From Verrucomicrobiales bacterium (GTDB taxonomy: Bacteria; Verrucomicrobiota; Verrucomicrobiia; Verrucomicrobiales; V1-33), in the NCBI GenBank assembly GCA_046155625.1, contig JBJXFS010000112.1, positions 46,841 through 110,840 on the forward strand: DNA of 64,000 nt, in the 5' to 3' direction. The translations under genes and the position numbers were made by a program. This document shows, one piece after another, positions 1 to 59,988 of the stretch. Under the pieces are notes generated by a model. That model had not been told where the DNA came from, searched no databases, and saw only the letters and a program-made list of their open reading frames with translations. Each line of letters begins with the position of its first letter. Within the stretch, counting starts at the first letter, position 1.

Positions 1-1
1 G

Positions 2-490
2 CCACAATCGCTCGCCCTCGGCGGCCTGAGCGCCCACACTCCCGCCTGGAACGCCCCCGCCGGATGGTCGCTCACTTCGACCCGCGCCGTGCTGCAAAGT
101 GTCGCCGGCGAATACTTCGATGTCGGCACCGGGCTGCCGTACCACCCGCAATCATACGAGCTGGCGGAAGCCGCCACTGGTCTCACCTACCGCTACGAAC
201 GCGGCGCCTCGGGTGCCTACACACTCGCGGAAATCACGACCGCCGCCGGTGACCGGCTCGTCCATTCCGATAGCGGACTTGTTTCCGTGAAATCGGGCCA
301 GCGGCTCGGGTTTACCCGGGACACCGCCGGCCGCCTGACTGCCATCACGCTGCCTGACGGCGCCCAAGTCCGCTACGCCTACACCGTGTCGGGCGGCCTG
401 CTCTCGGTAACCAAAACGGCCACCGGCGCCCGCACCCTCTACGGCTACCGCACCGAACACGACCACCTCCTCACCGCGCTCGCTCCGCCC
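2..490 (+). other. Paralog A: short N-proximal YD-like island (partial at window edge)
   Basis: YD-type beta-hairpin repeats: LTYRYERGASGAYTLAEIT, RDTAGRLTAITLPDGAQVRYAYTVSGGLLSV, TLYGYRTEHDHLLTAL. ~90% nt identity to 41101-41590 of paralog B. Confidence 0.6.
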
Positions 491-20035: not shown

Positions 20036-20117
20036 GTTTGATCAATCCCCAAGTCAACGGCGCCCGAGCCGCGCGGGGAACCGATGGTTTGAAATGCCGG
20101 CCCGACACCTGAGGTCG

Positions 20118-20755: not shown

Positions 20756-20878
20756 GGGGAACCACGAAAAACACGAAATACACGAAACCCGTGGGCTCTG
20801 GACGGGGGAAATTGGATGACGGACTCCGGTTCAGAATGGTCCATCGTTTTCGTGTGGTTCGTGCCTTTGGTGGTTGAT
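20756..20878. repeat. Intergenic imperfect inverted-repeat element built from cacgaa-rich arms (copy 1)
   Basis: Left arm: ggggaaccacgaaaaacacgaaatacacgaaa (20756-20787). Right arm: cgttttcgtgtggttcgtgcc (20845-20865), an approximate reverse complement. The 22-mer gggaaccacgaaaaacacgaaa recurs exactly at 62364-62385. Confidence 0.75.
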
Positions 20879-20989
20879 CCAGCGCGCAGCCAATCGCCAT
20901 TGAGGGTGGAAAGTGATTTGCCCGTCCCTCTGAGGTTTCGGCAATTCGAATCCGCTTGTCACTGCCAGGCTGGGCGGGTTAGTGGCCGC

Positions 20990-21568
20990 ATGTTGATTCG
21001 ACTTCTTGCGCCCTGGATTCTGCTGGGGGCGGCAGCCTGGCTCTCGGCGTGGCTTTTTCGCCGGCCCCAGTCGGCGGCGGCGCGGGATGGCGAGTGGCGG
21101 TCCTGGGTGGATCCGGCCACTGAGGGTCTCTTCAAAAAAGGCGCCTGGGCTTATGCGTTCGAGAATGCCGGCGCCGGGGTGTCGCTGGTCAGCCTGCTGG
21201 TCGGGGGCAGCTATTATCTATTCGATGAACCGACCAAGGGGGCGATTTTCGCCTGGCTGGCTGTTCTCTTTGTCGCCCTGTGCTGGCCGGTGACCGTACG
21301 CCGCCCGTGGCTTCGTGTGTCGCCGCAGGGGGTCACGTGGAAGCCGTTGCAGGCGTCGGGGGTCCAGGAAATCCCCTGGAATGAGGTCAGTTCCGTCGGA
21401 TTGGCCTGGCACGCGCGGCTCAGCGGTCAAGTCGTGGTCCACCGCCGATCATCCCGCCGGGCGATTCGCATCCACGCGCGGCACCTCAATGTTTCGCCCG
21501 CAGCGCTGGCGCAACTGCTCGAGAAGCGGGCGGCAATTTCAAAATCCATTTCTGCCCGGCGAGCCTAA
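20990..21568 (+). CDS. Small membrane protein (3 predicted TM helices) with a PH-like C-terminal domain
   Basis: Start taken as MLIRLLAPWILLGAAAWLSAWLF (ATG 20990). Two further hydrophobic helices: GAGVSLVSLLVGGSYYLF and AIFAWLAVLFVALCWPVTV. The C-terminus LRVSPQGVTWKPL...IPWNEVSSVGLAWH...VVVHRRSSRRAIRIHARHL resembles bacterial PH (bPH) domains. The track ORF start at 20816 overlaps the repeat element and is unlikely. Confidence 0.6.
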   Translation: MLIRLLAPWILLGAAAWLSAWLFRRPQSAAARDGEWRSWVDPATEGLFKKGAWAYAFENAGAGVSLVSLLVGGSYYLFDEPTKGAIFAWLAVLFVALCWPVTVRRPWLRVSPQGVTWKPLQASGVQEIPWNEVSSVGLAWHARLSGQVVVHRRSSRRAIRIHARHLNVSPAALAQLLEKRAAISKSISARRA

Positions 21569-21598: not shown

Positions 21599-21696
21599 TT
21601 GAAAGTTTAATGTCAGAATGAACAATTTTTTCTCTCAATTCGATTGGCAGCGGTGGAGCGATGGAGTAGAAGGGTGCTGCGTCGAGGATCCGGCGC
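21599..21696 (+). promoter_or_regulatory. A/T-rich island and Shine-Dalgarno-like GAGGA upstream of paralog B
   Basis: The only strongly A/T-rich intergenic stretch I noticed: ttgaaagtttaatgtcagaatgaacaattttttctctcaattcgatt, with a TTGAAA -35-like hexamer at 21599-21604. GAGGA at 21684-21688 lies 8 nt before GTG 21697. I could not assign a convincing -10 hexamer. Confidence 0.3.
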
Positions 21697-24600
21697 GTGA
21701 TTCGGATGATTATTTCCCCCAGCGAGAGCTTGGAGGACCGGCAGGATTCGCTATGGCGAATGCCGGAACGGGAAGCGTTGTTGGGGCCGCGGCGTGAGCG
21801 GTCGGGGCGGCGGCGGTGGAATCAGCCGTATGAATTTGAGGCGTTGGAGCCGCGGATTTTGTTGTCGGCGGCGGCGGCGGCGGTGCCCTTTGTGGAGGCG
21901 GCGGCGGGCAAGGATGCGACGCGGATCGAGCAGCCGGAGGCCGTGAAGGAGGCGGCGGGCGAGGGGGGGCAAGGCGGGTCGGAACGGGTCGATGGCCGGG
22001 GGCAGGGGAACGACTCCGCCGGGTCGGTTGACGAGCATCCGCGGTCGTCGTTGGGGAGTCTGTTTGACGTGCCGGAGGACGCGCATTTTGCGTCGGCGGC
22101 GGGGGCGGATGGGGTGATTCCTGTGGCGGATGTCGTGGCGCTGGGGGCGGGGCCCGGGGTGTTGGAAGCGGCTTCGTCGAGCGACATTTTGGCCGACAAG
22201 GGGACGGATCGTGAGGACGACGACGCGTCGAAGGCTGGACTCTTGGTCGCCGCGAACGAGCTGCCGATCGACGCGGGTGGACCGGTCATCGTCGGACCCG
22301 CGTCCGATCGAACGGACGAGTCCGAGGACGAGGGAGTGGTGGAAGTGGGCGGCTTGATCGCGGCGGATACAGCGTGGTCGGGGACGATCCACGTGACGGA
22401 GGATGTGACGGTGCAGCCAGGGGTCACGCTGACGCTGGCGCCGGGCACGGTGGTGAAATTTGGGCAAGGTCGGTACCTTCTCGCGCGCGGGTCGCTGATG
22501 GCGGATGGGGACCTCGCGAGCCCGATCTACTTTACATCTGTCAATGACGATTCAGTGGGCGTGGATGTCTCTGGCGAGGGGATTTCCACGCCTTTGCGCG
22601 GTGAGTGGAATGGCCTGTATTTTGACGGTGGATCGGACGCCTCGGTGCTGGATGAGGTGGTGGTCCGATACGGTGGAAGCGACGGGAATTGGGCGACGGT
22701 AAATGTGCGCGGGAGCAGCCCAAGGATTGAGGACGCGACGATCACACAGGTCGCGGGTCGGGGGGTGCGGATAACGGCCGGAGCGCCGACTTTGACGCGG
22801 GTGGCGGTGACGAATGCGGGGGGTGTGGCGTTTGATGCGGCGTGGGGGACAGGTGGTCAATTTGACGCGCTCTCGGCGGCCAACACGGCGGGCAATCATT
22901 TCAGTTTGCCAGGCGGTGATGTGGCGGGCGGGGCGGTGGACAACCGCATTTGGAATTATGGCGGACTGCCCGTTCATGTGAACGGAAATGTACGTATTTT
23001 CAATAGTGCCTCATTGACGGTAGCCGCGGGCCAAATTGTCAAAATGAACGGGGCGGCGATCTCGGTTCTCAGCGCGAGCGGGGCGGGCCGGTTGATCGCG
23101 GAGGGTACGGCGGGTGCGCCGGTTATTTTCACATCAATGTCGGACGATTCGGCCGGGGGTGATTCGAATGGCGATGGGAACGCGACGGCGCCGGCGCGCG
23201 GCCAGTGGGGTGGCCTATTTATCGATGCCGGGAATGGCGGGCTGGCGAACATGGAGGTCCGGTACGCGGGCAGCGACGGCAATTGGGGAGGTGTCTCGCT
23301 GCAGGGCGGATCTCCTGCATTGACCCATGTGCTGGTTCGCGAGAGCGGTGCCTTCGGGGTGCGAATCACGGGGGGCACGCCGGTGCTCAACGGGATGCGG
23401 GTCGAGGGGGCAACCAATGTGGCATTTTTTTCCGACTGGAATGTGCGAGGCGATTATGAAGGGCTGTCCGCGGTGAACACGTTGGGCAACCGGTTTCAAC
23501 TGACGGGCGGCGACTTGGCGAGTGCGGACTGGACTTGGGACTTCGGGGGCATGTCGGCGCTGGGGGTGACGGGCAATGTGCGCGTGTACAACAGTGCCAC
23601 CTTGACGATTCCCGCGGGGCTAGTCATCAAGATGGCGGGCGGGTTGTTCCAAGCCCTGAATTCGAGCGGGGCGGGCACGCTGATTGTGCAAGGGACACTT
23701 GGAGCGCCGGTGATTTTCACTTCCACCGCCGATGACACCGTGGGTGGGGATACCAATTCGGACGGCAACGCGTCCGCCCCGGCACGCGGCAACTGGAATG
23801 GAATTTACCTGGATTCAAGCAGCAACACGAGCCGACTGGAAAACGTGGAGGTCCGCTACGCGGGGTCGGATGGGAGTTGGGGTGGCGTGAGCTTGCGCGG
23901 GGGGACTCCGACGCTGCGGAACGTAACGATCCGCGAGAGCGCCGCCTTCGGCGTCCGGATCACGGGCGGGGCGCCGGTGCTGGACAGGGTGACGGTCATG
24001 GGGGCCTCCAACGTGGCGTTTTTCTCGGATTGGAACATTCGTGGCCGGTATACAAATATAACCGCCACCGCGACGCCTGGGAACCGTTTTCAGATGACCG
24101 GGGGCGACCTGGCCAACGAAGACTGGGCATGGGATTTCGGGGGGCTCTCAACGCTGTGGATCACCGGCAATGTGCGCGTGTACAACAGTGCCACCTTGAC
24201 GATTCCCGCGGGGCTAGTCATTAAGATGGCGGGCGGGTTGTTCCAAGCTCTGAATTCGAGCGGGGCGGGCACGCTGATTGTGCAAGGGACCGTCGGAGCG
24301 CCGGTGATTTTCACTTCCACCGCCGATGACACCGTGGGTGGGGATACCAATTCGGACGGCAACGCGTCCGCCCCGGCACGCGGCCACTGGAATGGAATTT
24401 ACCTGGATTCAAGCAGCAGCACGAGCCGACTGGAAAACGTGGAGGTGCGGTATGCCGGATCGGATGGCAATTGGGGAGCCGTGACGCTTCGCGGGGGCAC
24501 GCCGATCGTAAGAAATGTCTCTATCCGCGAGAGCGCCGCCTTCGGTGTCCGGATCACGGGCGGCGCGCCGATTTTGGACGGGATGACGGTCGTGGGCGCG

Positions 24601-27600
24601 TCCAACGTGGCGTTTTTCTCCGATTGGAACATCCGTGGCCGGTATGCCAACCTGACCGCGACCAACACGCCGGGGAACCGGTTTCAGATGAGCGGGGGCG
24701 ACCTGGCCAACGAAGACTGGGAATGGGACTTCGGTGGTCTGTCAACGCTGTGGATCACGGGCAATGTGCGCGTGTACAACAGTGCGACTCTGACGATTCC
24801 CGCGGGTCTGGTCATCAAGATGGCGGGCGGGTTGTTCCAAGCCCTGAATTCGAGCGGCGCTGGCACATTGATCGTGCGGGGGACACTTGGAGCGCCGGTG
24901 ATTTTCACGTCGACGGCGGATGACAGCGTGGGCGGGGATTCGAACTCGGATGGGGCGGCCACCACCCCGGCGCGGGGCGATTGGAACGGGGTGTATCTGG
25001 ATTCGGCCAGCGCTCGATCCCGCCTGGAGCATGTGGAGGTGCGCTACGCGGGGTCGGACGGCAACTGGGGGGGGGTGACAGTGCGGGGCGGGGCGCCGAC
25101 CTTGCTGAATGTGACGGTGCGGGATAGCAAGGCGTATGGCGTCCGCATTGCGGATGGCGCGCCGGTGCTGGAAAATGTGCGGGTCGATGGATCGGATAAT
25201 TCGGCGTTCCATTCCGATTGGAACGTGCGCGGCACGTACACCAACCTGAGCGCGGTGAACACGGCGGGAGGAAGCCGGTTCACGCTGACCGGGGGCGACC
25301 TAAGCAACAGCGACTGGACCTGGAGTTTCGGAGGGTTGCCGGTCATCGTCCTCGGCAATGTCCGCGTCTACAGCAGCACCACCCTCACCCTGAGCCCTGG
25401 GCTGGTGGTGAAAATGGCGGGGGGCTCCATCCAGACGATCAATTCCAGCGGTTCGGGGCACTTGGTGGCGGCCGGCACGGCCGAGGCGCCCATCATCATC
25501 ACCTCGGTCGCGGATGACACGGCGGGAGGCGACGCGAATGGCGATGGAATCGCCACCGCGCCGGGCCGGGGAAATTGGAACAGTCTTTACCTGGACTCGA
25601 ACAGCGAAATCACCCGCCTGGAGCACGTGGAAGTGCGGTATGCGGGATTAGACGGAAACTGGGGTGGGGTCTCGCTCCGCGGCGGGGCGCCCATGCTGAA
25701 GAATGTCACGGTGCGGGAAAGCGGCGCCTTCGGCGTGCGGATCACGGGGGGCGCGCCGGTCCTGGAGAACGTGCGGGTCGACGGGTCGAGCAATTCGGCG
25801 TTCCATTCCGATTGGAACGTGCGCGGTGCGTACACGAACCTCATCGCGGTGAATGCAGCGGGTGGCAGCCGGTTTACCCTAGACGGCGGCGACCTGAGCA
25901 ATGCCGATTGGACATGGCGGTTCGGCGGGCTGCCGCTCGTGCTTTTAGGCAACGTTCGGGTCTACAACAGCCAGACGCTGACCCTGCCGGCCGGCTTGGT
26001 CGTGAAAATCGCGGGCGGTTCGATCCAGACGATCAATTCGAGTGGTGCGGGGCGGCTCGTGACCACGGGCACCGCAGAAGCCCCGGTGATCATCACATCC
26101 GTGGCCGATGACACGGCGGGGGGCGATGCGAACGGCGATGGAGCGGCCTCCGCACCGGCCCGGGGCCAATGGAACGGCTTGTACCTCGACAGCGGCGCCA
26201 CCCATGAGTTTGCCTTTACCGACGTCCGGTACGGCGGCAGCGATGCGAATTGGGGGGCCGTGAACCTGCGCGGGTCGAGTCTGACCGCCAGTGGCCTGAC
26301 CATTCGCGAAAGCGCGGCGGACGGACTGCGCCTTGCTTCTGGAGGCACGGCGCAAGTCAATGGCGGCCTGCTGATCAACAATGCCTCGGCCGGGGTGCGG
26401 GTAGATGGGGGTGGGTTCACTGGCAATCGGCTCGGCATCTTCGGGTCGCCGACGGGCGTGCACATCAATGCGGGCTCGAGTGCCTCGGTCAGCGGGTCGG
26501 CGTTTGAAGGGAATAGCACGGCCGTCGTGCATCAGGGAAACAATGCGGCCAACGCCAACTTTAACGACAACTGGTGGGGTGATGCGGGCGGGCCGAATGA
26601 CGCCTCGAATGCCGACGGCGTGGTCAACCCCAATGCGGCGGGCCAGCCAGTCAGTGACTTCGTCCAATACCTGCCGTATGCCACGGTGCGCCCGGCGCTG
26701 CCGATTGGGCCGCTGGTGGTCAGCGTGAGCCCGGCTACGGCGGGAGCGGGCGGGGCGGGGGAAGTGCTGATTATTTTCTCCGAACCAGTCGAGCCCGCGA
26801 CTTTCACGGCGGAGGACATTTCGGTGACCGGCCCGCAGGGCGTGGCCGTCGCCAACATCGTGCTCGTTGCCGCCGCCACGTATCGCGCGACATTTTCCAC
26901 CGCCCTGACCGCGCCGGGCGAATACACGGTGCGGGTGGGGCCGGACGTGAAAGCGTTGGCGAGCGGGTTCCGCCTGGACCAGAACCGGAATGGGGTGGGG
27001 GCGGAGCCGGTGGCGGATGTTTTCACGCATTTGATGCGCATCGACACGGCGGCGCCGGTCGTCAGTGGCCACACGCCAACCGGCACGCAGACGGCGGCGG
27101 TGGGGGAAGTGGTCATTACCTTTAATGAGGCGATTGGCGAGCGCACCTTTGGTCCGGAGGACGCGGCCCTGACGGACCCCGGCGGGACGGCCATCCCGGT
27201 GCTGGCGGTCAACCGGATCAACGAGACGCAGTTCCGGGTGATTTTCCCGGTTCAGTTTCTCAATGGGACTTACAGCTTGAACGTGGGGCCCACGATTGCG
27301 GACTTGGCGGGCAACGCGATGACGGCGGCGTATGTGGGCAGTTTTGTGATCGACCGTCAGCCGCTGCGGGTGGTGACACAGAACCCCAGCGAGCTGGTGA
27401 CCAGCACGACCAGCAGTGTGACCGTGACCTTTTCGGCGCCGCTCAATCCAGGCAGCTTTACGGCGGCGGATGTGGCGTTGACCGGGCCGCGCGGGCTGGT
27501 GGCGATCACGGGGATCACGGCGGTCAATGCGACGACGTATGCGCTCTCCTTCGCGCCACAGAGCATTGAAGGACGGTATGAACTGCTGATTGGCCCTGAC

Positions 27601-30600
27601 CTGACGGATCTGGCGGGGATTTTGCTGGACCAGGACGGGGACGGAGTGGCGGGGGAAACGCAGGACCGGTATGCGGGAGAATTTGTGATCGACGGGGCGG
27701 GGCCGTATGTGTTGCGGCAATCGGCGAGCGGGTTGGAACCACGCGGACTTTCCCAGATTGACGTGGTCTTTTCCGAAACGCTGTTGGCAGGATCGGTGCA
27801 GGTCAGTGACTTTACGCTCACGGGTCCGTCTGGGCCGATCCCCGTGACCTCGCTGAGCGCGGTGGCGGCAGACACGTTCCGAATCACGTTCGCGCCGCTG
27901 CCGGCCGATGGGCTGTACACGCTCAGCGTGGGCCCGGATCTGACGGACTTGGGAGGGACGCGGATGGACCAAAACCAGAATGGGACGGAGGGCGAAGTGC
28001 CGGGGGATGTGTGGAATGGGAGCTTCACTATCGATGCGGCGCCGCCGCGGGTGGTGTCGACCAGTTTGAGCAATCCGATGACGGCGCCGTTTGTTCGGTT
28101 CACGGTGAGTTTCAGCAAGGAGATTGATTCGGCGAGCTTCACGGCGGAGGACGTCGTGTACAGCGGTCCGGCGCGGCCGAGCATTCCGGTGAGCGTGAAT
28201 CGACTGAATGCGACGACGTTTGAAATTGTTTCGGGCAACATCGGGGCCGCCATTGGCGATTACACGGTGGTGATCGGTCCGGATGTGCGGGATCTGGCCG
28301 GCAATGCCCTGGACCAGAATGGCAATGGGACGGCGGGCGAGGTGGAGGACGTTTTTACGCAGACCGTCACGTTGACCCTGCCGGACTTAGTGGCTTCGGA
28401 AGTGAGCGCGCTGGACACGGCGGTGGCTGGGCAGGCGATAAGCGTGAGCTGGCAGGTCACCAATTCCGGCAACCGGGCGGCCGAGTCGCCGTGGAATGAA
28501 GTGGTGATCCTGTCGGCCACTGGCGCGCCGACGGGTCCGTCCAGTCAAGTAATCGTGGTGGGCACGCTGACGACGACCTCACCTTTGGCCATTGGCGAAT
28601 CCGTTGTGCGCACCTTGGATCTCACGCTGCCGGTGACATTGAGCGGCAACCTGACGCTCTTTGTCGTGTTGGATCAAAGCCAGGCGCTCCCCGAGCCCGA
28701 TGACGCCAATAACATCGCCTCGCGGGCGATCGTGGTGTCGGGCGAGGAGGTGAGGGCGGACTTGGTTGTTTCCTCGGTCAGTGGACCGACCACGGCGACC
28801 GGAGGGCAAAGAGTCTCGGTAACCTACACGGTCACCAACCAGGGGACAGGGGCGACATTGACGGGCGCGTGGGACGACCGATTGTATCTATCCAGCGACG
28901 AGACGTTGGGCGCAGGCGACATTCAATTGGGCGGACTTGCACGCAGTGGGATGCTGGCCGCGGGTGGAGTCTATACTGAAAACATGAGCGGCTCTCTGCC
29001 GCTGACCGCGGAGGGGACGTATTATTTGATCGTGTTCACCGATGCGGCCAACGAGACCCTGGAAATCGGCGCCGAGAATAACAATACACGGGCTTCTGGA
29101 GCGGTGACGGTGGTGGCGGCGCCGTCACCGGACTTGGTGGTGACGGCGGTGGTGCCGCCGGTGGGAGCGCTGGCCGGTCGCACGGCGATGGTGTCCTATA
29201 GCGTGCGCAATCAGGGGAGCGAATCGACAGGCAGCGGGTGGCTCGACCGGGTTTATTTGTCGTTGGATGCTTCTTTTGGAGCGGCAGATTTGATTCTGGC
29301 CACACGGACGCGACCGGCCTCGCTGGAGGCGGGCGTCACGTACACGGAAAATTTGGATGTGGTATTGCCGGTGGCATTCAGCGGTGAGTTTTACTTGATT
29401 GTGGTGACGGACGCGGCGGGGGAAGTGGCCGAGTGGCGAGGGGACGCGGAAACGAACAATGCGTTGGCATCCGCAGTGTTTACGGTCGCCCTGCCGCCCT
29501 CGGCCGATTTGCGTGTCGACGGTGTGGTGGCGCCGGCGCGGGTGATCGGGGATCCGGCCGATGCGCGGATCACTTGGACGGTGAGCAACCGTGGGAGTGC
29601 GGCGACGGCGGTCGACCGGTGGGTGGACCGGGTGATTATTTCGGTGGACGAATTGGTGGGAAATAATGATGACCGGGTGCTGGGCACGGTGGAGCATTTT
29701 GGGTTGCTGCCGGCGGGTGCGGGTTACACGGAATCGCTGGTGGTGCTCTTGCCCATCGCGACCAACGAGCGGTTTTACGTGTATGTGGAGACGGATGCGG
29801 GAGATGCGGTGAGCGAGGTGCCTAACACTGAATCGAATCAGGCGCGGGCGCCGGAGCGGCTGGAAGTGATGACCATTCCGTACGCGGACTTGGTGGTGAC
29901 GAGCGTGCAGCCGGTGTCGGCCACGGTGACGGCGGGCGGGAAGCTTGAGGTGACATGGAGTGTCAAAAACCAGGGCATTGGGGTGACGAGCGATCCGACG
30001 TGGATTGACCAGGTGTTTATTTCGCGGACACCGCAGGGCGCAGAGGCGATCGTGCTCTCCAACGAGTCGCACATCGGGAACCTGGCGGTGGACGGGGCGT
30101 ACACGCGCACGGCGAGCTTGAATGTGCCGCTGGGGATTGGGGGCGAGTATTATGTGTTTGTGCGCACGGGCATCAACGGGCCCTTTGAATTTGGACTGAC
30201 GGGCAATAACACGACGCGGGCGGAGCAGGTGATTGAGATCACCTTTGTACCGTTGCCGCAGGGGGATTTGGAGCCGACGGCGATTTCGGCGCCGACGGCG
30301 GCGGTGGATGGCGAGCGGGTGACGGTGACTTGGACGGTGCGCAACAACGGACCGGATGCGTACGAGAACGGGGTGGAGTGGAGCGACCGACTCGTATTGG
30401 TTGACCTGGGTGGGGGGCCGGAGCGGGTATTGGACAGCTTCCCGCGTTCGATTGGCCTGGGGGTAGGCAACACGTATACGCGTTCGGAATCGGTTCTGTT
30501 GCCGCAGGTGCAGGGGGTTTTCCGCATTGAAGTGCGCACGGATGTGGGGGCCGGGCTGGCGGAGGCGGTGGAAATGAACAATGCGCGAGCCAGCGAGCTC

Positions 30601-33600
30601 CTCACGATCTCGCTGCGGCCGCGCTCAGACCTGCGGGTGGTGGAGCTTTCCGCTCCCGAGGTTGTGACGGCGGGCACGGTGATTGATGTTATTTTCCGTG
30701 TGACCAATGGCGGCTCGGCGGCTACGCCCAGTGGCGGGTCGCGCTGGAGCGACCGCGTGTATTTGAATAACACACCCACGGTGGGCGGGCGGCTTTTGGG
30801 CACGCTGCAAAATGGATCGGCCTTGGAAGTCGGCCAAAGCTATCAGACGACAGACACCTTCACGCTGCCGCGGGCTTCGGGGGGCAATTTGTTTATCGTG
30901 GTGGTGGCCGACGCGCTCGGCCAGGTGGATGAATTTCCCCAGGAAGGGAATAACTTCCTGGCGCGGGCGATTGCGATCGATGTCACCCCGGTGCCGCCGC
31001 CGGACCTGGTGGTGACGGCGGTGGCGGCGCCCTCGGAGGCCTTTGACGGGAGTTCGATCACGGTGCGCTACTCGGTGGAAAACAAGGGGACGGGGCCGAC
31101 CGTACCCGGGTCGTGGAGCGACCAGATTTGGCTGACGCGGGCGAAGGACCGGCCCAATCCGTCGCGGGGCGACGTGTATCTGGGGGCGGCGGGGCACAAT
31201 GGGGCGTTGGAGGTGGGAGAGTTTTACGACGGGGTGGCCACGGTGCGGTTGCCGGTCAACCTGGCCGGGCAGTTTTTCATCACGGTGTGGGCGGACGGCG
31301 GCCAGGGCGTGTATGAAACGGCATTGAGCACGAACGTGAATCCGGACGCGCCCAATGACTTGGAGGGGAATAATTTCAAGGCGGTGCCGATGCAGGTATT
31401 TTTCACTCCGCCCTCGGACCTGGTGGTGACGCGCGTCGAGGCGCCGGCCACGGCGCGGGGGGCTGAGGAGGTGACCATTTCGTGGACGGTGGCCAACCAG
31501 GGGGCGGTGACGACCAATCGCGACCGGTGGGCGGATGCGATCTGGCTTTCCACCGACGATGACCTGCACGATGGGCTTGGCCAGCAGTGGCTGGTCTTTG
31601 CCGTGCCGCATGCGGGCACGCTGGCGCTCAATCAAAGTTACTCGGAAACGGCCACCTTCACGTTGCCGCCCTCGGCTTTCGGGAGCCACTTTATCGTGGA
31701 AACCAATGTGAACCCGGATCTGGCGGCGCCGCACGAGGATCTCTTTTTGGAGCAGATCAGGGGGATACTGCAGCGGGCCGAACAGGCGCTGGGTCGCCCC
31801 TTGGCGGAGTTTTCCGTGGCCAGCCTGCCGCGCCTGAGTGCGAGCCAGGTGCTGCAAATCCTGACGGGCGGGAGCAAACCCACGCTGGAACTGGTCTTTG
31901 AGGGGCCGTGGACCGATAACAACACGCGGGCGGCGGCCAGCACGGTGACAAACACCCCGGCTGACTTGGTGGTCAGTTCCGTGGTCACGGTGCCCACGGC
32001 CTTTTCGGGCGAGCGGGTGGAAGTCACCTACACGGTGACCAACGCCGGGGCGGCGGCCGTGTACGCGGGCACGGAGCGGTGGCGCGATTATCTCTTCCTT
32101 TCCCCGGATGCCACTTTCATCGGCTCGCGCGCCGGCCTGGTTGGCTCGGTGGTGCATCAAAATACGGGCGGCTTGGGGGTGGTAGCCAGTTACACCGAGA
32201 GCACGGCGATTTCGCTGCCGGCCGGAATCCAGGGCAGGTGGTACGTGCATGTGTTTACGGACATCAGGATTTTCCACGGGCAACCGGTTTTAAGCGGGCT
32301 CTCGCCGGGCAGCTACCCTGACTGGCCTCAAGCCTTCCGCGAGCGGGTGTGGGAGGGGACGGGCGACAAGACCAATAACTACGGGCAGACGTCGCTGTCG
32401 GTGACGTTAAGCGAGCCGGACCTGCGGGTGACCGCCCTGACAGTGCCGGCCACGGCGGCCTCGGGCAGCACGATTGCGGTGAGCTTCACGGCATCGAACA
32501 CGGGCACGCGCGCGACCCGGGTCGATCAGTGGCGCGACCGGGTTTATTTAAGTCTGGATGGCTCGCTGGATATTTATGACATTCTCTTGGGCACATTCGA
32601 GCGCGAGGGTGTGCTGGGGGCCGGGGAAAGCTACACGGTCACGGGCGATGTGCGCCTGCCCGATAACATCAGCGGGCCATTCACGCTGCTGGTGTACATC
32701 GATTCGCCCTTCAGTGTGGCGCCGGTTTATGGGCCGGTTTACCCGTTCCCGATCGCGGCGGGCAACCCGCGCCTCTCCCAGGGCGGGCACCCGATGGGGG
32801 CGGTGCACGAATTCCAGAATGAAGCCAATGACATCACGGCCCGGGCCATCGAGGTGACGCCGGCGCCGGCGCCCGACTTGCGCGTGACCAGCGTGAGTGC
32901 GCCGGCCCGGGTGCTCACCGGTGAAACCTTCACGGTCACTTACTCGGTGACCAACACGGGCCTGGGGGTCACCCCCGAACGCCAGAACACGTGGAGTGAT
33001 CAAGTGTGGCTTTCGCGCGACACATTCCTTGATGTGCGCAGCGACCACTATCTCGGTGAGGTAAAGATCGAACAAACCCTCCAGCCCAATGGCACGTACA
33101 CGGTGACGCGCACGTACCGGCTGCCGCGCGGGTTATTAGCGCCGTATTACGTGATCGTGCTGACCGACGCGCCCAATGGCTACGTGCCGATCGGGACGGT
33201 CAATGAAAGCTCCGAATCGAACAACGCGACCCCCAGCGCGGATCCGATGCTCATCGAACTGCCCCCGCCGAGCGACTTGCAGGTGACCCAGGTGGCGGCC
33301 ACTTCGAGCGGCCGGGTGGGATCGGCGGTCACGGTCAATTGGACGACAACCAATCGCGGGACGACGGCGGCCAGCGGGGTGTGGGCCGACGCGGTGTACT
33401 TATCGACGGACGCGACCTGGGATTACGGGGATTTGTTAATTGGGAGCGTGGATTTTGCCTCGCGCACTTTGGCGGGTGGGGCGAGTTACACGGGCAGCTT
33501 GACGGCACTGTTGCCGCCCACGCTGCCGGGCGACTACCGGGTGATCGTGCGCACGGATATTTTCGATGACATTTTTGAGGCGCAGAATAATGCCAATAAC

Positions 33601-36600
33601 GCGACCCCATCCACGGATGTGTTAGGCCTCAACGTGGACGCGCTGACCCTGGGCGTGCCGACCACGGCACGGCTCAGTGGGGCGCGCGCCACGCTGCTCT
33701 ACCGGATCGCGGTGCCGACGGGCGAAACCCTGGAGTTGCGGGCGAGCGGGGGCAATGCCTCGATGGCCTTGGAGTTGTACGCGGGGCATGAAAAGTTGCC
33801 CAATTCGATTGTGAACGACGCGGCCTTTGAAGGGGCGCTTTTGTCCGACCAGCGGTTGCTCATTCCGAGCACGGTGGCGGGGTCGTACTATCTCTTGGTG
33901 CGGGCGCAGAGCGCGCCCGCGGATTCGCCGGTCACCCTGCTGGCGCGGCTCCTGCCGTTTTCGATTACCAATGTGAGCCCGGACGCGGTCGGCGACGGTC
34001 GGTACGTGACGGTGACCATACGGGGCGCAAAATTTAGCCCGCAGGCGGCGGTCAAACTGGTGCGTCCGACCTTTGGGGAATTTGCCCCGGTGTCCTACCA
34101 GGTGATCGATGCCACAAAGATCATTGCGACCTTTGATGTACGCGGGGCGGTCAACGGCCTTTACGACGTGCGGGTGACCAACCCGGACGGGGCCAGTGTG
34201 ACCGATCCGCACCGCTTGCAGATTGAGGCGGCGCAGCCCAATGACGCGGCCATTGGGTTGGGGGGGCCGAGCCGGATTGACATCGGCGACTCGGCCGTGT
34301 ACGCCGTCACCCTGCAGGGGACCTCGAACCTGGACATGCCGTATGTGCATGTGGCCTTTGGTGTCCCGCGCATCCGGAACGAAAGCGGGCTCATTCGGGG
34401 CGAGGCCCTGGTCTTTAACGGGAATTTCGGCGGGGCGCCCGGGGTCGAGGGCGTGCCGTGGAGCACGCTCGATGGGGTGCTCAATCTCAATGGCCGACTG
34501 ATTTCCGGAGGCTTTGCGCGCGACTTCGTAGTGGCCGGGGTGGGGGGCTTAAGTTTTGTCGTGCAGACGTACCCTGGGCTGGAGGATGAACTGCGCGAAA
34601 ACCCGCGGTTTCTGGACAGCCTCTTGCCCGGGCAACTGGAGGTGGCGGCCTTCGACATGTGGATCATGGCGGCGGCCACGCCGATGACGGCCGCGGAATT
34701 CTTAGCCTACCAGCGGGCGCAGGCCGAGAAGTTTCGACTGGCGGTGGTGGCCGACGCGAATGCGCCGCCCTCGATTGCGGCCTTGGCGGCGGACGCGGGC
34801 AATTGGGTGAACTTGTATTTGGCGGCGTTGGGTGAGGCGGGACTTTTGCGAGCCGAGGACACGCCACCGGCGATTCGGGAGCGAGCGGAATTTTTCAGTG
34901 AAGTGTCGGCGGTGCTGGCCGGGGTGCTGGCGGGACCGGGCGGCGGGGCGGTGGTGGCCGACAACGACTTGCCCTCGGAGTGGGAGGCCTTTTTCGGGCG
35001 CATCAAAGGGTATTTGGGCGACACACCGACGGCGTACTCGGGTGGCACTACACTGCCGACGCAAGGGGAATTTAGCCTCGGGCTTTCGGCGCCGACGCAG
35101 TTTGTGGTCTACAAGGTGCGAGTGGGGCCGGAGGAGGACGTGGGGGTTTTGCCGGTGGACGACCCGAATTTGGCGGACTTCTTCGGACTCTCCGGCGCCT
35201 TGAGTCGTCGGCTCACGCTGCGGGGCCCGAGCGGGTCGGGGGCGGCGAATTTCGTGCCGCGGGGGACGAGTCTGCCGTACTTGATTAACTACGAGCATGA
35301 GAGCGGGGCGGCGGGTGCGGTGAAGGAATTGCGGGTCGTGCAGCAGATGGACCAATCGAGCTTTGACATTCGCAGTTTCCGCTTGAGTGACATCTCGCTG
35401 GGCTCGCTGAAAATCGATGTGCCGGACGGGCGCGGCAGCTTCACGGCGGAGTACGACTTTACGCAGAGCCGGGGATTTGTGCTCCAGGTCACGGCCGGCA
35501 TGGAAATCATCAGCGGCACGGCCACGTGGCTTTTCCGGGCGGTCGATCCAGTCAGTGGCCAACTGGTCACCGACGAGGCGATAGGGATACTGCGGCCCGG
35601 GGATAAGGCGTCCTTTGGCTACGGGATCAACGCGCAGGCGGAGGGGGCGCGCACGGGCGATGCGTTGAGTGGCAGTGTGCGGGCGATTCTCGATGGCGGC
35701 GTACCGCTGGACAGCAACACGGTCGTGAACACCCTGGATGCCACGGCGCCGGTGAGCACGCTGGCGGTCACCCCGGTCAGTCCCGGCCGCTACCAACTGC
35801 GCTGGGCGGCCAGTGACGCGTCCGAGGGATCGGGACTGGCCAGCCACACGCTCTTTGTGGCCATTGGTGGCGGGCCGTACGTGGCGCTCCTGCGGCACAC
35901 CACGGAAACCAGCTATAACTTCGCGGGCGAGGCGAGCCGTAATTACTCGTTCTTGGTTCTAAGCGCGGACCAGGCGGGCAACGCGGAGGCGGCGCCGGCG
36001 GGGCTCTTGGTGCCGCCGTACGTGGCGGCCGTGAATCTCGGGGCGTTGCCGGACTTTGGCGGCGGCGGTAGCGCGGATGACATACCGGTGGCCGCGCCGC
36101 CGCTCTCCACGACACCAGCCAACGCACTCTTTATCCGGGCCCAACTCGGGGTGGCGACGATATTGAGCGCCTCCAGGCCTCCGGCGTATGCGGCGGCGCT
36201 GGAACCCTTTACGCTGGGCGCCTTTGCGCGTGCGGTGCCGGGAAGCGGGGCGGACATCGGGCCCTTGGGACTCGCGTTTTCGGCTGATGGCCAGACGATT
36301 TTCGTGTCCGGCGGCGCGGGCCGGAGCACGCTGTGGCGTTTTGGGGCGGCGGGGGGTGAAGCCACGGTGGCCACGGCGCTCATCACGCTCAATCAGCCGA
36401 TTTACGATCTGGCGGTTGATGGCACGGGGCAACTGTGGGCGAGCACGGGCGGGCTGGGGTTGGTGCGCTTGAGCGCGGGCACGGGTGAAATCCTGGAATC
36501 CTTTGGCTTCGGGCAAAGCCTGGGGCTGGCGATGGGACCGGACGGGCGCACGCTGTATGTGGCGACCACGGCCGGGATCAGCGCCTTTGACACGCAGACC

Positions 36601-42600: not shown

Positions 42601-45600
42601 ACAGCCACCGCCGTCACCGTCGGGGCGAGAGATGCCAGGAATATCGATGTCTTTCCGCTCTCGTATACGCTCGCCCCGGGCGAGACGCGCCAATTCCTCA
42701 TACGGCAACGCGTTGAAGCGGGAATCAACGACCTCGCCTCCGCGGCCGCGGGTACGCGCTACTTCCTGTCCACTTCAAGCTTCGGCACTATCACCGCAAA
42801 TGGGCTATTCACCGCCACCGCCCCAGGGCGCGTCGACATCACCGTCGTCCAAGGAGGATTGAGCGTGCTCGTCCCCATGCTTGTCACCGTGCCCCAGACC
42901 GGTCAAGTGACGCTCAACGCCGAGGGCGGCCTGCTTTCGTCCGGCACCGGGATCACGGTGGGCGTGCCACAAGGCGCGCTGAAAGAACAGACCGCCATCG
43001 GGGTAAATGCGCTGCAGGAAAGCGACTTCGATTACGGCGCGCCTTACGGGTGGGCGTTTGCGGGCGGCTTCGAACTAGACGGATTCGATGAGCAGACGGA
43101 CTACCTCCCATTCAGCGTGATCATGCCGGCCCCCGCGGGCGTGACTCCAGGAACCGTGCTGCCCCTGCTGCAACCGACCACGGTGAGGCACTCGGATGGG
43201 ACAACCGAGGAAGCTTGGTTCCTGATCGACACGCTGCTGGTGGGGAATGATGGCTTCATGCGCACCACGTCGCCGCCTAATCTCGGCCTTTCGGCGCGCT
43301 CGTATTCCGGCCCTCTGAGTATCGGCCTCAACTACACGCAAGCCCCCCGTGCCATGGCCGCCGTGGGGGGAGCCGGATTGACCGGGCTGGTATTTGCCAT
43401 CGGGGACATGGCCCGAAGCCTCTTGACGCTTGGCTCGACCACGCTGGGATCGCGCGGCGTGAAGGGCCTGGGTGATCCGGTCACGGCTCCAGGGGTGGTC
43501 GACATGGATATCGCCGGCGGGCCAGGACTGGGCGAAACCAAAGTGTATGCGGCGGCAGGCATCTTTGGAGATGTGTACATCCCGATGGTCACGGGATTTG
43601 ATGTGCGCCTGACCTTCCGTGTCGCGACCAACGACGGATTGACTCGCGTCACGGATTCCACGGTGCTACTGGCGCCAGGGGAATACAAGACTCTCGGCAT
43701 CGGCCAGGCGTTCCGGCTGCCGGTTTCTTCGGTGCAGGAGATTCCGCCGCCGGTGGTCGCGAGCGCCGAGTTCCGGTTTGACAATTCCTCCGGCAGCCCG
43801 AAACCGGAAGTCCTGCTTACCGGGCTTAATTTCCTCCTCCGCAGCCCGTGGGAACTCGCCCCCGATCGCGATCTGGGCAACCGGGTGCTGGACTTGTACG
43901 TCACTTTCGAGATCGGAGGTCGAGACAGCACCAATCCCGATGGCACCCCACTCTACAATGGCGGACGCGATGTCACCGTGCTCGGCAGCCTGCTGAAGAT
44001 CGAGGGCAACGGAACAATCGCCTCGCCCCATGTGCTGACCGTCCCTCTGCCGGCCGGCATCAGCTTGGCCGATGCCTTCATTACCGTGACTCGGCCAACT
44101 CAGGAACCGCTCGATGGCCGCTTTGACCGCCGGGAATTTACCAGCAATCCGGCGCGCATTCTCAGCCAATCTCGTTACGCCTTTGCGCCGAATGGCGGAG
44201 CGGATCTGGTGTCGGTGATCGACACCCGCGCCACCACCGTGGTGGACAAAATCAGAGTGTCGTTCCCGAGCGAAATCGCCCGAATTCTCCTGGCCGCGAT
44301 TCCCGGCAAGTCGTCACTCTCGCCCCGGCAAGCGGTCGCCACCAACAACGGCGCCCGCGTTTACGTCACGCTGAACGGGGCCGGCGCGATCGCCGTGCTT
44401 GATGCCGTGGGCCTTCAGCAGGTGGACGTGGATGGCGAGGTGGCGGGCGTCCAAAGCCTCCTGCTCCCCAATGGGGCGCGCCCGTTCAAGCTGGCCCTGT
44501 CGCCGGATAACACATTGCTGTACGCCACCGATGAACTCGCGGGCACGGTGTATGTTATCGACAGTAATCCGTTCTCCGACACCTATCACACGCTGCTCAC
44601 CACCGTCTCCCTGCCCAAAGAACTGACGCCGCTCGGCCTCCGTGGTGTGGCCGTAAACGCCACCGGCACGGAGGTCATCGTCGCCGCGCCAGGCCGCGGA
44701 CTTTTCGGCCAATACGGAAAACCGGATGGGCATCTGATCACCTTTGCGTACCCATTGCAGAAGGTTTCTCCCGATGACGAAGGATATACCGCCATCGCGG
44801 TGGGTCCCGACCCATTTGATGTGATAGCCACCGAGGATCCCAATGTGATCCTGTTCACCGACCGTCTGAGCTCGACGCATGCGCTCGGCGTACTCCGCAA
44901 AGTCGGACCGGCTTACGATCCCGGATTTGTGGATGTCACGTCGTTCGGGATCATCCCGAGGATTGTCGAGGGGAGGGCGACGCAGGTTTTTGGGGTTCGC
45001 AATGCGCAGGGAGTCGTCTACGTACCGGCCAATTCATTGTCTGAGCGGGTGGTGGGGCAGGATGATGACGGGAATCCGGTCAAACTCGGCGAGCATCCGG
45101 CGTACGCCTTCATCACGGGCTTTAAAAAATTCGTCCCGGACGATCCCTTGGTCGACCCAGCGCTGGCGCCGGTCTGGGTGTACAATGCGTTCTTCACTTC
45201 GCCAGCGACCGGCATGACCATTGGGACACCGCTGGCGGCTGGCGGCAATATCGGGATCATTCGCAATGTGCTCGGGGATTTTGCCGATCCACTGGATCGT
45301 CCACGCCTCGTGGCCGCCACGTCACCAATCATCCACTCGTTCCCGGACAACCTCTCACTGTCGTTACAAACTGGCCACCTCTATGCAGCCTATTCCGGGA
45401 TCAATTCCGTAGTCGTTTACGATTCGGCCATGATGCTCCGGACGATCGAGAAGGCGGTTGATGGTCCGCCACTCCGGTCCTGGTCGCAATTTCCGGAAAC
45501 GGAAGCCTCGATCGTGTATCGCGAACTGTCTGGCCTGGTGCGCGGCCCCTTGTCCACGGTACCCATCGACGTGGTTGACCGGTCGGTTATCGTCCGCGCC

Positions 45601-48600
45601 GACATCCGTTTCTACAACACGGTCCTCCTTGATCAGGTTTTTCTGCTCGACGCGAATGGCAAAGAAGTTCTCGACAAGGACGGAAACAAAATCCTCATCG
45701 CCGCGGGTAGCGGCTTCCTGGTTTATGGCACGCCGACCCGGGGGCTGGACGGGACCACGCCCAATCGATTCGCTCCGATTCCGATGCCGCGTCTGCCTCG
45801 GGGGATCGTGGTGCAGCCGATCCTGAAGGATACGGCCATGCGCCTCAGTACCACGCCACTGAACCATAACCCGTCGCTCAATTCCTGGCCGAACAATCCG
45901 ATGACCGTTGAGGCCGGCAAAACATCCTCGGTCGAAGTGCAGACGGGTGCCTTTCACGAGATCCACAACTTGGTGACCTATCGCTCGCTGGGCACGGCTC
46001 AGGGGATCGTCCTGCACTACGATTCGCTGCGTGCCAACGACACGGTGCTGCATTACCTGGCGTTCTCCGGCGCCGAACTGCAACGGCTCATTCAAGGAAA
46101 GAACCGCATCAACCTCAGCCTGATCGCTCGCGTGACGGCCCGGCAGGGAGAAACCGTCGTCACGGTGAAGGGATTCCCGGCCGAACAGGCCGTCCCTGTC
46201 GGCTTGCTGGGCAATGAATTGTTCTTCCGACTGCCTGAGGAATTGAAGGCGGACCAAACCTACGGGGCGGGCATCCCAATCGATTTCGGCGACGCCGACC
46301 CCGGACTGTACACGCTGGTGGTCGAGTTCGGCCTTTTTGAATTGATCAATGGACGCTGGCAAGGCCGCTGGTTCGAAGAAACCCGTCCGCTGCCCTACCT
46401 GCGTGATCAGGAGGGGATTTTCGGGGTGGGCTGGGGGATGGCGAATTATTTCCGGATCATTTCAGGGGAATCCGGTGCCTTGCTGATCAACGGAAACGGA
46501 ACCGAGCAAATCTACCTCGCTCCCGACAATCCAAAGCAGCCGTGGGCGTCGCTGGCTCTCGACTATTCCACCCTGCGCTTGAACGACAATAATGTCTTCG
46601 AGCGGGTCATGCTCGACGGCACACGCTACCTTTTCGACCGCGAGGGATTGCTCGAGAAAGTCATCGACCGCAATAACAACGAGACAATCTACGCGCACTC
46701 AGGAGGTAAACTCATCAGCATCACCGATCCGGTGGGCCTGCGCACTGAGTTCACCTATGCCGGCGAAAGGGTAGTGTCGATCATCGATCCAGCCGGCAGA
46801 ATGACCAAGTTCACATACTCGGGAAACAACTTGGCCTCAATCACTGATCCGGATCAAAGCAATCGTACGTTTGCGTACGAGAATCCGGATTTCCCCGAAC
46901 TGATGACCTCTCAGGTCCACAAGCGGGGCAATGATCCGAACGAATCGTTCCCCTCGTCCTTCAAGGAGGAAATCGATTACGACGACTACGGACGCGTGAT
47001 CGGCGGCCTGCGCATCGACGAGAAATGGTTCACGCTCGAATACGCGCAGAGCCTGCTGATCGCGCCTCTCGAAGACGTGGCCGATCCGACCAAACGCGTC
47101 AATCTGGCCTCCCTGACCGAAGCCGCAGATCGGACTGACGCCGTCATTTCGACATACATCAACTTTAATGGGAAGACGATTCTTTTCTACAACGATGCCA
47201 ATGGGTCGTTCGTCTCGTCCGAAGAGGCGGAGGGTGGAAAGACACGGACGTTTGACCGGGATCCGCAGGGACTCCTCATCGCCGAGGAGGACGAAATTGG
47301 AAACCGCCGCGAGTACGCCTACGATGCCTTCCGCAACGTCGAGGCGGTCACCGACTACCCGAATGGATCTAACGCCGTCACCCGCTTCTACACGTACGGC
47401 GCGCCATTCAACTCGCTTCGCACCGAAGAGGATGGTCTTGGTCGTCAGACGACCCGGGAATACGACACCCGAGGGAATCTGATTGAGGTCACCAAGTTCG
47501 ATCCCCTGGCCCCCGAAGGATCACCGCAATCGGTCACTACCCGGTTTTCCTATGACATCCGAGGAATGGTGCTGAGCGAAACCGACGGACGTGGGCTGAC
47601 GACTTTCCACACCTACGATCAGTACAGCCGCCTCACGGGCACGCTCCATCCGGATGGCAGCACCATCGGCTACCAATACGACACGCTGGCCGGGAATCTG
47701 AATCGTGTCACCGACGAGGAGGGATTCGTGGTGGAAATGGTCTATGACGCCATGAATCGCCTCACCGGAGCGCGGCACTTCCTCGGTGGCAACCTCGGCG
47801 TGGCCGAAGCTGCCTTCGATTACGACGCTGAGGGAAACCAAATCGTCGAGAATAATCGGAACGACGTTCTTACATTGCGCCGATTTGACACGATGGACAG
47901 GGTGGTCAGCGAGGTCGTGGACCCAGCGGACCTCGCCCTGGAAACGCTCCACGCTTACGAACTTGGGGACATGCTTCTTCCTTATAGCCCGCCGACCGGT
48001 CCGGGATTCACCTACCACTTCATCCGCGACCCCGATGGTTATTTTCATGCCATGGTTTTCGATGACCGCGGGAATCTGCGCTACGAGATCGATCCGCTGG
48101 GGCAGACGACCGAAATTCTCTATGACGGCGCTTTCCGCCGTTCCGGCGTGAAGCTGCCAAACGGGGGAGTGATCAACGAGACCATTGACGGCCGTGGCCG
48201 CGTTACAGTGCGCACCGGCCCGACGGTGGAACGCGAGGAATTCGTCTACGACGACGAGGACCGCCTGAGTCAGCACACAGTGTTCAATGACGGCGAGAAC
48301 CAAGTGTGGCGATACGCCTACAATATCTTCAACAAAATCGCTCGGATCATCGACCCATTAGATCACGTCTTCCGCTTCGAGTACGACGGCAACGGGAATG
48401 TCGTCCGCACGATCGAATTCGCCGGACTCCAGGCCGAGTTGGTTACGCAGTACACATTCGACGAGCGGAATCGCGAGATCGAACGGCTCGTCGCCAACGC
48501 CGCCCTGTGGAAAACGGTCTATTGGAAAACGGGAACGGTCAGGCAAACGATTGACCCGCGTGGGGATGACTACGTGACGTCGTTTGAGTACGACGGCCTG

Positions 48601-59988: not shown

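Follow-up and report, generated by a model that had tools for sequence, protein, structure and literature searches.

We analysed a stretch of 64,000 nt (hereafter the window) from a Verrucomicrobiales bacterium (GenBank assembly GCA_046155625.1, contig JBJXFS010000112.1, positions 46,841 to 110,840 of the forward strand), in which a single 38-kb frame is a real, intact gene for a protein of 12,763 residues (hereafter the giant). Comparison with homologous sequences indicates that the giant belongs to a conserved family in which an adhesin-like stalk, ~6,400 amino acids (aa) long in the giant, precedes a propeller, a YD-repeat array predicted to form a shell, an Rhs-associated core, and a multi-domain tail. 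We propose, with a probability of roughly 0.5, that the giant is a stalked, contact-dependent, polymorphic-toxin-like device whose role might be to attack or manipulate neighbouring cells (competitors or prey).

Translation of nucleotides 21697..59988 (plus strand) yields a terminal stop codon only. At the given base composition, stops are expected at ~2.7% of random codons, and thus an open frame of 12.7k codons is beyond chance. Over 26 blocks of 500 codons each, GC content is uniform at third codon positions (GC3, 0.72-0.82) and ranges from 0.40 to 0.57 at second positions (GC2). Cysteine codons are absent from this frame, while the other two frames hold 520 and 350 TGY triplets, and the products of neighbouring genes contain 0.4-1.4% cysteine. 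The purging of cysteine codons is limited to the giant's own frame and marks a real gene. Besides the GTG listed in Table 1, in-frame ATG codons at codon 4 or codon 22 are other possible starts, and all three precede the LEPR motif. Judging from its domains, the giant is probably an exported cell-surface protein, and its total lack of cysteine would be consistent with export as an unfolded chain, as in the giant adhesins of type I secretion systems (T1SS).

The domain map (Table 1) was drawn with Pfam, NCBIfam, and self-built hidden Markov models (HMMs). An earlier note on this DNA, made from the sequence alone, had claimed one uninterrupted open reading frame (ORF) of 12,763 codons in which a ~6,400-aa adhesin stalk is followed, in one fusion, by a YD shell, its Rhs core, and a multi-domain tail; the frame is borne out by the coding signals described above, and the fusion by the profile searches. 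The repeat counts given there (six 198-aa units, five Ig-like domains, here Big_5, 13 CARDB, and nine He_PIG domains) were reproduced by the self-built HMMs, and nearly all items of its domain list were recovered in the same order, except that 'IPT', 'FN3', 'NHL-like', and 'dockerin-like' stayed below thresholds (Dockerin_1 is present in the precomputed Pfam list of one homologue). Behind the LEPR-XLL motif, an acidic low-complexity linker reaches aa 204. The beta-helix region comprises six full 198-aa units (aa 304-1491), a partial unit at each end, and a terminal beta-helix; the units are spaced by 594 nt, with DNA identity of 66-90%, and were revealed by a separate repeat search, since their period is above the limit of Tandem Repeats Finder, which reported no tandem repeats. 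The ~770-aa profile-less stretch after the PPC domain is kept in homologues at 42-80% identity, a tenth He_PIG domain was detected at aa 6,800 by a self-built HMM, and profile matches within the YD island lie at about aa 6,575-6,608. When the N-terminal part and the pre-shell region were searched with Pfam and NCBIfam, no PAAR, prePAAR, VgrG-binding, or TcB-type delivery domain was detected.

Table 1. Features of the giant and its surroundings (positions in the window; AF2, AlphaFold2; CBM, carbohydrate-binding module)
Feature	Position	Strand	Remarks
Whole ORF	21697..59988	+	12,763 aa, GTG start, without cysteine
LEPR-XLL motif, aa 46-64	21832..21888	+	NF012209, 26.9 bits vs cut-off 17
Right-handed beta-helix region	22309..26676	+	Beta_helix profiles, self-built HMM, repeat search
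Five Big_5 Ig-like domains, aa 1668-2212	26698..28332	+	Pfam and self-built HMM
Thirteen CARDB domains, aa 2229-3970	28381..33606	+	Pfam and self-built HMM
PPC domain (aa about 3998-4070), then ~770 aa without profile match	33688..36231	+	
First beta-propeller, ~aa 4,850-5,000	36232..36966	+	SGL/WD40-like by profile
Nine He_PIG/Big_9 cadherin-like domains, aa 5320-6183	37654..40245	+	Profiles and self-built HMM
YD island (aa about 6441-6700), PPC-like and Ca-binding dockerin-like stretch, Big_9, Big_2	41017..42855	+	
Conserved pre-shell region	42874..44136	+	Family-invariant motifs MRTTSPPN and VTFEIGGRDS
Second beta-propeller, YVTN type	44137..45546	+	TIGR02276; PDB 1L0Q, E 3.7e-11
Continuous YD-repeat array (predicted shell), ~2,550 aa, ~aa 8,245-10,790	46429..54066	+	Pfam, NCBIfam, and PDB matches
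Rhs-associated core, aa 10,791-10,868	54067..54300	+	TIGR03696, 83.6 bits vs cut-off 32.5
Post-core hydrophobic/Gly-Ala helices	54301..54846	+	
Exchangeable cassette	54847..56691	+	Holds orphan conserved domain X
Domain X, aa 11,340-11,647	55714-56637	+	Orphan, conserved
Metzincin-like zinc peptidase (predicted)	56704..57276	+	HEFGH at aa 11,777-11,781 (nt 57025-57039)
CBM/lectin-like jelly-roll beta-sandwich (predicted)	57409..57921	+	AF2 model and Foldseek
PKD domains (about five)	57934..59316	+	Pfam and self-built HMM
Pro-rich linker and C-terminal beta-rich domain	59317..59985	+	
Upstream tandem paralogue	1..20035	+	Cut by window edge; frame open from base 2
Sigma-70 promoter-like site	21599..21626	+	AT-rich patch ~70 nt 5' of ORF; weak evidence

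The YD array is matched by PF05593 (RHS_repeat) with E values down to 2.5e-104, in 33 stretches within aa 8,001-11,000, and by TIGR01643 as well. PDB sequences matched by the array include Rhs cocoons of type VI secretion systems (T6SS) and a bacterial teneurin-like protein (TLP; 9pt5/9ifo, E 2e-30), and we infer that the array closes into a shell. The core contains a triad of R10828, D10841, and D10865 with the motif DPMG-x20-DPRG and ends with ...RYFDPATKRFISADPMGFAAGDANLYRYAGNNPVRFTDPRG, the next residue being T, so that the final core motif reads DPRGT and not DPxGL. The triad spacing (13/24) is equal to that of the catalytic residues of the Bacillus teneurin-like protein BiTLP (R2103/D2116/D2140; PMC13018210), and none of the 23 family sequences examined lacks the triad (R-x12-DPxG-x20-DPxG). 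Considering that the triad is intact, has a matching spacing, and occurs throughout these sequences, autoproteolysis after the second DPxG is plausible, i.e., the giant chain may be cleaved after G10868.

By scanning metagenomes with two seeds that are invariant in three sequences (MRTTSPPN and DL[YR]VTFEI), seven loci (L085-L091) were found on contigs of 47-125 kb; L088 and L089 are apparently the same sequence, leaving six distinct contigs. These loci carry uninterrupted ORF fragments of 4,878-7,033 aa, each aligned with aa ~3,817-10,870 of the giant in a single high-scoring segment pair at 38-58% identity, and the ORFs reach the right end of the fetched locus in seven of seven cases and the left end in six of seven. 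In the exception, L086, the ORF begins after a polylinker-like string (GAATTCCAAGCTTCGGATCC) at the contig start (L086 1-25); its apparent stop and single cysteine are probably vector-derived because they are located in this polylinker-like sequence. Two further sequences are collinear with the giant, each likewise in a single high-scoring segment pair, namely P0017 from a Verrucomicrobiota metagenome-assembled genome (MAG), which covers aa 6,049-7,715 at 37% identity, and L005, a MAG contig with 63% GC, which covers aa 8,403-12,520 at 56% identity with the cassette included. Thus, the search for collinear orthologues that the earlier note had proposed was successful in several metagenomes and MAGs, and homologue support covers aa 3,817-12,520, aa 1-3,800 being without it. 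Between the last CARDB domain and the PKD domains, domain order is thus kept in six organisms or more, and six loci, on five distinct contigs, run on further upstream. Apart from the polylinker-derived residue of L086, no cysteine occurs in the fragments of L005, L085-L091, and P0017 (up to 7,033 aa). Because independent contigs carry collinear, uninterrupted ORFs, the giant is not a one-off nor, in all likelihood, an artefact, and as far as sequence comparison can tell it is a member of a conserved family of stalked Rhs/YD-shell proteins.

The tail behind the core is a multi-domain region of 1,894 aa (~200 kDa), the architecture of which recurs in Planctomycetota, Verrucomicrobiota, Lentisphaerae, and beta/gamma-proteobacteria, in a total of 23 Rhs-linked sequences. 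Their shared order is a ~2,500-aa YD array, the Rhs core, hydrophobic Gly/Ala-rich helices, a region of ~720-880 aa, an HExxHxxG peptidase, a beta-sandwich, and a dockerin or PKD domain. In all but one of the 23 members (22 of 23), HExGH lies 827-993 aa past the end of the core, while by BLAST their cassette sequences form at least eight mutually unrelated clusters. The giant and its tandem paralogue, which lies upstream in the window, diverge precisely at the cassette. Such a cassette, constant in length, unrelated in sequence, and placed right after an Rhs core, is by sequence criteria the signature of a polymorphic toxin. Within the helices that precede it, aa 10,990-11,008 (~125 aa past the core) are the most hydrophobic 19-mer in all 12,763 aa. 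No homologues of aa 10,869-11,700 were returned by a word-indexed search, and an exhaustive HMMER search with the same region gave 13 distant proteins. Domain X of the cassette is shared by the giant with L005 and with L075, from the complete genome of Pirellulaceae bacterium SH501. Its invariant positions are G, G, R, G, R, D, K, P, D-x-D, E-x-Y, and G, and an alpha/beta pattern is predicted for it. A nucleotidyltransferase-like nature of domain X (G-x-G-[AS]-[ST] ... D-x-D ... E) would be a resemblance of motifs only and is hence not claimed. We also rejected L051 as a complete short family member, as its ORF starts within YD repeats after junk sequence in a MAG based on Oxford Nanopore (ONT) reads.

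Behind the cassette, aa 11,670-12,075 contain an HExxHxxG motif, of which H108, E109, G111, H112, and G115 (numbering of alignment A7) do not vary among 15 sequences. When this module was used for a PDB profile search, 37 of 39 matches were metzincins aligned on the active-site helix, such as karilysin (E 0.004), matrix metalloproteinases, snapalysin, and ADAMTS-5, and sub-threshold matches to NF038122 ('metallo_LGF') and Peptidase_M10 were observed among family members. The canonical site of the third zinc ligand (H/D, three residues past the Gly) varies; 40-55 aa downstream there are an (H/E)-L-D that is nearly invariant and a conserved ...LM... motif. The AF2 model of the module has a predicted local distance difference test (pLDDT) score of 79.5, and its C-terminal beta-sandwich half resembles CBM27/28/61 and legume-type lectins (E about 2e-5), the Foldseek matches being confined to that half. 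Taken as a prediction from sequence and model, aa 11,670-12,075 may thus represent a metzincin-like peptidase followed by a CBM-like jelly-roll. A genome scan with the peptidase module detected more than 371 loci, many of them inside very long ORFs. The module also occurs stand-alone in proteins of 564-714 aa, as well as near the C-terminus of non-Rhs giant cyanobacterial proteins, e.g., the product of a 31-kb coding sequence annotated as 'polymorphic membrane protein' on plasmid1 of Calothrix brevissima NIES-22 (L092; AP018208.1, 33921-65210).

The upstream paralogue matches aa 6,498-11,027 of the giant at 45.5% identity and aa 11,674-12,540 at 58.8%, and contains two cysteines in 6,648 aa. 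It has its own equivalent hydrophobic segment after the core and a cassette that differs from domain X and includes an HEKAH motif; no match to the domain X HMM was obtained in the paralogue even with filters off, nor did its cassette match anything in Pfam, NCBIfam, PADLOC, or PDB profile searches. At the DNA level the two genes are 63-75% identical with a longest exact shared run of 47 nt, and a chimeric assembly between them was rejected on these grounds. Giant aa 6,498-6,800 (YD island and PPC-like part; 41188-42096 vs 89-990 in the paralogue) show 87-88% protein identity, as against 31-39% in the YD array, a contrast suggestive of gene conversion or of unusually strong constraint on this segment. 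One of the metagenomic relatives, L085, has 79% identity with the giant over aa 3,980-5,330 (window 33634-37686) and 58% overall, and its C-terminal half is nearer to the upstream paralogue (61%) than to the giant. From such comparisons the family appears to evolve as a mosaic.

Downstream of the giant (window 60223-63882), a set of genes typical of genomes in the superphylum of Planctomycetota, Verrucomicrobiota, and Chlamydiota (PVC) was found, namely adenine phosphoribosyltransferase (apt), which is the first gene 3' of the giant and an equivalog match above the curated cut-off, a sulfatase, and a 3-keto-disaccharide hydrolase (DUF1080-type, minus strand). Together with the LEPR-XLL motif and the taxonomic labels of the nearest homologues, these neighbours indicate that the gene belongs to a PVC-type bacterium. 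The apt gene was considered as an immunity gene and rejected, being a full-length housekeeping equivalog. No transporter genes were found within the window. Between the paralogues there are two plus-strand ORFs of 241 aa (20019-20744) and 250 aa (20816-21568). The former is signal-like at its N-terminus, PEP-CTERM-like at its C-terminus (..VIPEPRIPTLLLAAAVSLLVRRSR), and without a Pfam or NCBIfam match; a homologue (L007 12709-13083; 45% over 85 aa) is located directly 3' of the Rhs-tail gene in a Limisphaerales MAG, and the ORF may be a conserved partner of the Rhs-tail gene. The latter is a predicted membrane protein with a sub-threshold STM3941-family match only (E 1.4e-4). A minus-strand ORF of 262 aa (19241-20029) is homologous to the plus-strand ORF 20019-20744 (36% identity, E 3e-9) and overlaps the last ~265 codons of the upstream paralogue (19241-20035, plus strand), where the translation resembles a shadow frame. 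Because of this shadow-like translation over a minus-strand ORF, the true end of the paralogue may be earlier (a lost stop or an indel). In proteobacterial relatives, a ~100-aa DUF3467 gene adjoins the stop of the Rhs-tail gene (L017, L018, L048, and L074) and a ~606-aa HlyD-family adaptor with a GAF domain is encoded downstream (L048, L051, L064, and L074), a hint from gene context that these genes form a dedicated export system there.

How the giant might work can be sketched from its parts and their known counterparts. Bacterial TLPs have N-terminal adhesion domains ahead of the YD shell (PMC13018210), and in the mosquito protein SGS1, ~230 aa of transmembrane-like helices after the aspartyl-protease site lie inside the shell, the chain exiting via a mid-shell opening to a further domain (PMC9935623). 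We favour a stalked, contact-dependent device because the logic of Rhs toxins, a TLP-like N-terminus, and the SGS1 precedent for the tail come together in it. The LEPR-XLL N-terminus would direct export and/or retention at the cell, and the following ~6,400 aa (beta-helix, Ig-like, CARDB, and cadherin-like domains) would form an extended sugar- and surface-binding stalk, keeping the propeller and the ~2,550-aa YD shell at a distance from the cell. The Rhs core would plug the shell and the R/D/D aspartyl-protease triad would cut after G10868, with the post-core hydrophobic helices staying within the shell as in SGS1. The exchangeable ~800-aa cassette, here with the enzyme-like domain X, would be the polymorphic payload, at least partly shielded by the shell. 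The chain would then exit the shell and end in an outer module of peptidase, CBM, and PKD domains, which might bind and attack the target surface and thereby trigger or assist payload release. In this sketch, we infer both the encapsulated parts and the toxicity.

Several observations weigh against such a device. If Tc and Rhs cocoons are roughly scaled up, a shell of 2,550 aa should be too small for a cargo of ~800 aa, and the 1,894-aa tail cannot fit whole within the shell. No plug domain was detected by sequence or profile matching in aa 7,060-8,244. Domain X has no match in Pfam, NCBIfam, PADLOC, or PDB sequences and profiles, and no toxin family was recognised in the cassette; the AF2 model of domain X is poor (pLDDT 55), the Foldseek matches of that model being meaningless. 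No immunity-like gene lies directly downstream of the giant among apt, the sulfatase, and the 3-keto-disaccharide hydrolase; along with the lack of a recognised toxin fold and the large size of the cassette, this speaks against a classical toxin directed at kin. Furthermore, the role of the peptidase-CBM module is not necessarily tied to toxin delivery, given that it is also present in non-Rhs giants and stand-alone proteins. A more speculative and rather improbable elaboration is a 'threaded' Rhs cocoon mounted on the stalk, in which an internal payload of fixed length would be flanked N-terminally by shell and core and C-terminally by the peptidase-lectin-PKD/dockerin module; on contact, this outer handle would pull out or proteolytically free the helices and cassette, with no injector of the T6SS or TcA type. 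If this were true, domain X would be a new family of effector enzymes.

The main rival explanation, which we hold to be credible if on balance unlikely, is a non-toxic surface scaffold, i.e., a giant adhesin and extracellular enzyme carrier of a teneurin- or cellulosome-like kind, in which the YD shell would be a structural hub, nothing would be delivered, and the tail enzymes (peptidase, CBM, and domain X) would serve attachment or feeding by processing polymers or the surface of the cell itself. It is supported by the many carbohydrate- and surface-binding modules (beta-helix, CARDB, CBM-like, PKD, and the dockerin-like stretch), by the sulfatase and 3-keto-disaccharide hydrolase as neighbours, by the absence of an immunity gene downstream, and by the non-Rhs giant proteins that also bear the peptidase-CBM module. 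In addition, the YD shell of metazoan teneurins serves adhesion alone (PMC13018210), and PVC giants have been interpreted as degradative surface structures (PMC12057145). However, the autoprotease triad, which is lost in metazoan teneurins, is strictly kept in the 23 members, hydrophobic helices come directly after the core, and the post-core cassette, which is conserved in length, unrelated in sequence, and different between tandem paralogues, is of the kind seen in polymorphic toxins.

Classical Rhs logic, by which the entire 1,894-aa tail would be an encapsulated and released toxin and the stalk would replace PAAR/VgrG, is far less probable. A core with an intact cleavage motif does directly precede the tail, and the YD array is unusually long; the ~200-kDa tail, however, holds folded modules of extracellular type (peptidase, CBM-like domain, and five PKD domains) that are also found outside Rhs proteins. 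The cargo of known Tc and T6SS Rhs cocoons is small, at roughly 15-35 kDa. The C-terminal domains of TLPs are likewise of ~15 kDa (PMC13018210), and the SGS1 chain exits its shell (PMC9935623). It is also very unlikely that a chimeric or mis-assembled join, a mis-counted repeat, or a decaying pseudogene has been taken for one ORF. The 594-nt repeats are up to 90% identical, so that an assembly error in their copy number is conceivable, the first 3,800 aa have no direct homologue support, and the exact proteins of the window are absent from the searched collections; against this stand the 12,763 stop-free codons with uniform GC3, the loss of cysteine codons from the giant's frame only, the uninterrupted homologues that are collinear over aa 3,817-12,520 and still open further upstream, and the lack of any exact DNA run of more than 47 nt shared by the paralogues.

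Giant PVC proteins, LEPR-XLL proteins, Rhs cocoons, TLPs, SGS1, and a PVC giant with an Rhs segment are already known. Proteins of at least 10,000 aa are reportedly common among Verrucomicrobiota and Planctomycetota (bioRxiv 10.1101/2023.11.21.568195), and CASH beta-helices, Rhs, and adhesin domains are combined in a giant PVC protein of Ca. Menyafoubacter (PMC12057145). The earlier note had not recognised the architecture of the giant as that of a described family; this holds for the family and its tail, which were not found in the searched literature, and has to be narrowed in that related architectures have been published (PMC13018210, PMC9935623, and PMC12057145). In the same literature, we found no description of the order of stalk, propeller, long shell, core, fixed-length polymorphic cassette, and peptidase-lectin module, of domain X, or of the cysteine-free property, and the family is apparently undescribed. 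Known cocoons either hold cargo and depend on a separate injector (T6SS or TcA) or, in animals, act as adhesion hubs (teneurins). The family extends the spectrum of bacterial cocoons into the PVC superphylum, with a cocoon covalently joined to a very long adhesin stalk and a polymorphic cassette that has the Rhs core on one side and a conserved outer peptidase-lectin module on the other. It raises the questions of how the chain leaves the YD shell, why the length of the cassette is kept and its sequence is not, what domain X does, and why cysteine is wholly excluded over more than 12,000 residues; Pirellulaceae bacterium SH501, a cultured relative with domain X, could make these questions tractable.

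Compared with known systems, the giant shares a YD shell, an R/D/D core, and a variable post-core region with Rhs/YD polymorphic toxins (T6SS RhsA, Tse5, and Tse15, and the BC cocoons of Tc toxins). Unlike these, it has no PAAR/VgrG/TcA-type partner or domain but a 6,400-aa adhesin stalk behind LEPR-XLL, and its YD array reaches ~2,550 aa. Its variable region of ~800 aa is internal and followed by a conserved peptidase/CBM/PKD module of ~1,000 aa, whereas neither a short protein-ending toxin domain sized for the shell nor an adjacent immunity gene was found. RTX adhesins of the T1SS (LapA, SiiE, and MpIBP) have a very long stalk of tandem Ig-like domains, Ca-binding motifs, and virtually no cysteine. 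The giant resembles them in its long Ig-like stalk, Ca-binding motifs, and lack of cysteine, and HlyD-type genes lie beside proteobacterial relatives of the tail family; however, no RTX nonapeptides or C-terminal T1SS signal were identified in the giant, and the adhesins are without an Rhs shell. Other PVC giants (LEPR-XLL, NF012209; PMC12057145; Omnitrophota, bioRxiv 10.1101/2023.11.21.568195) are alike in having at least 10,000 aa, beta-helix, Ig, and adhesin repeats, and LEPR-XLL, and the Menyafoubacter protein is noted to include an Rhs segment (PMC12057145). They are set apart by their descriptions, which give domain inventories only, without the conserved order of the giant.

Bacterial TLPs (BiTLP, 9pt5/9ifo; PMC13018210) are similar to the giant in that a surface YD shell follows a propeller and N-terminal adhesion domains, with the same R/D/D spacing and a polymorphic post-shell region. 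They differ in that the pre-shell propeller of the giant scores as YVTN with no NHL matches and no FN-plug match was obtained in aa 7,060-8,244, and in that TLP C-terminal domains average ~15 kDa (PMC13018210), as compared with a cassette of ~800 aa plus ~1,000 conserved aa in the giant. Moreover, TLPs have been reported from six phyla, Planctomycetota and Verrucomicrobiota not among them (PMC13018210), and the giant is about six times longer. Mosquito SGS1 (PMC9935623) has an Rhs/YD shell, two beta-propellers, CBM-/lectin-type domains, and hydrophobic helices after the protease site, as does the giant, the likeness beyond the shared Rhs parts being drawn from its description and not from sequence. 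It is a eukaryotic protein of 3,364 aa with a single Tox-SGS domain after the helices, in contrast to the cassette and peptidase/CBM/PKD module of the giant. By this analogy, SGS1 would be the best structural precedent for the tail of the giant.

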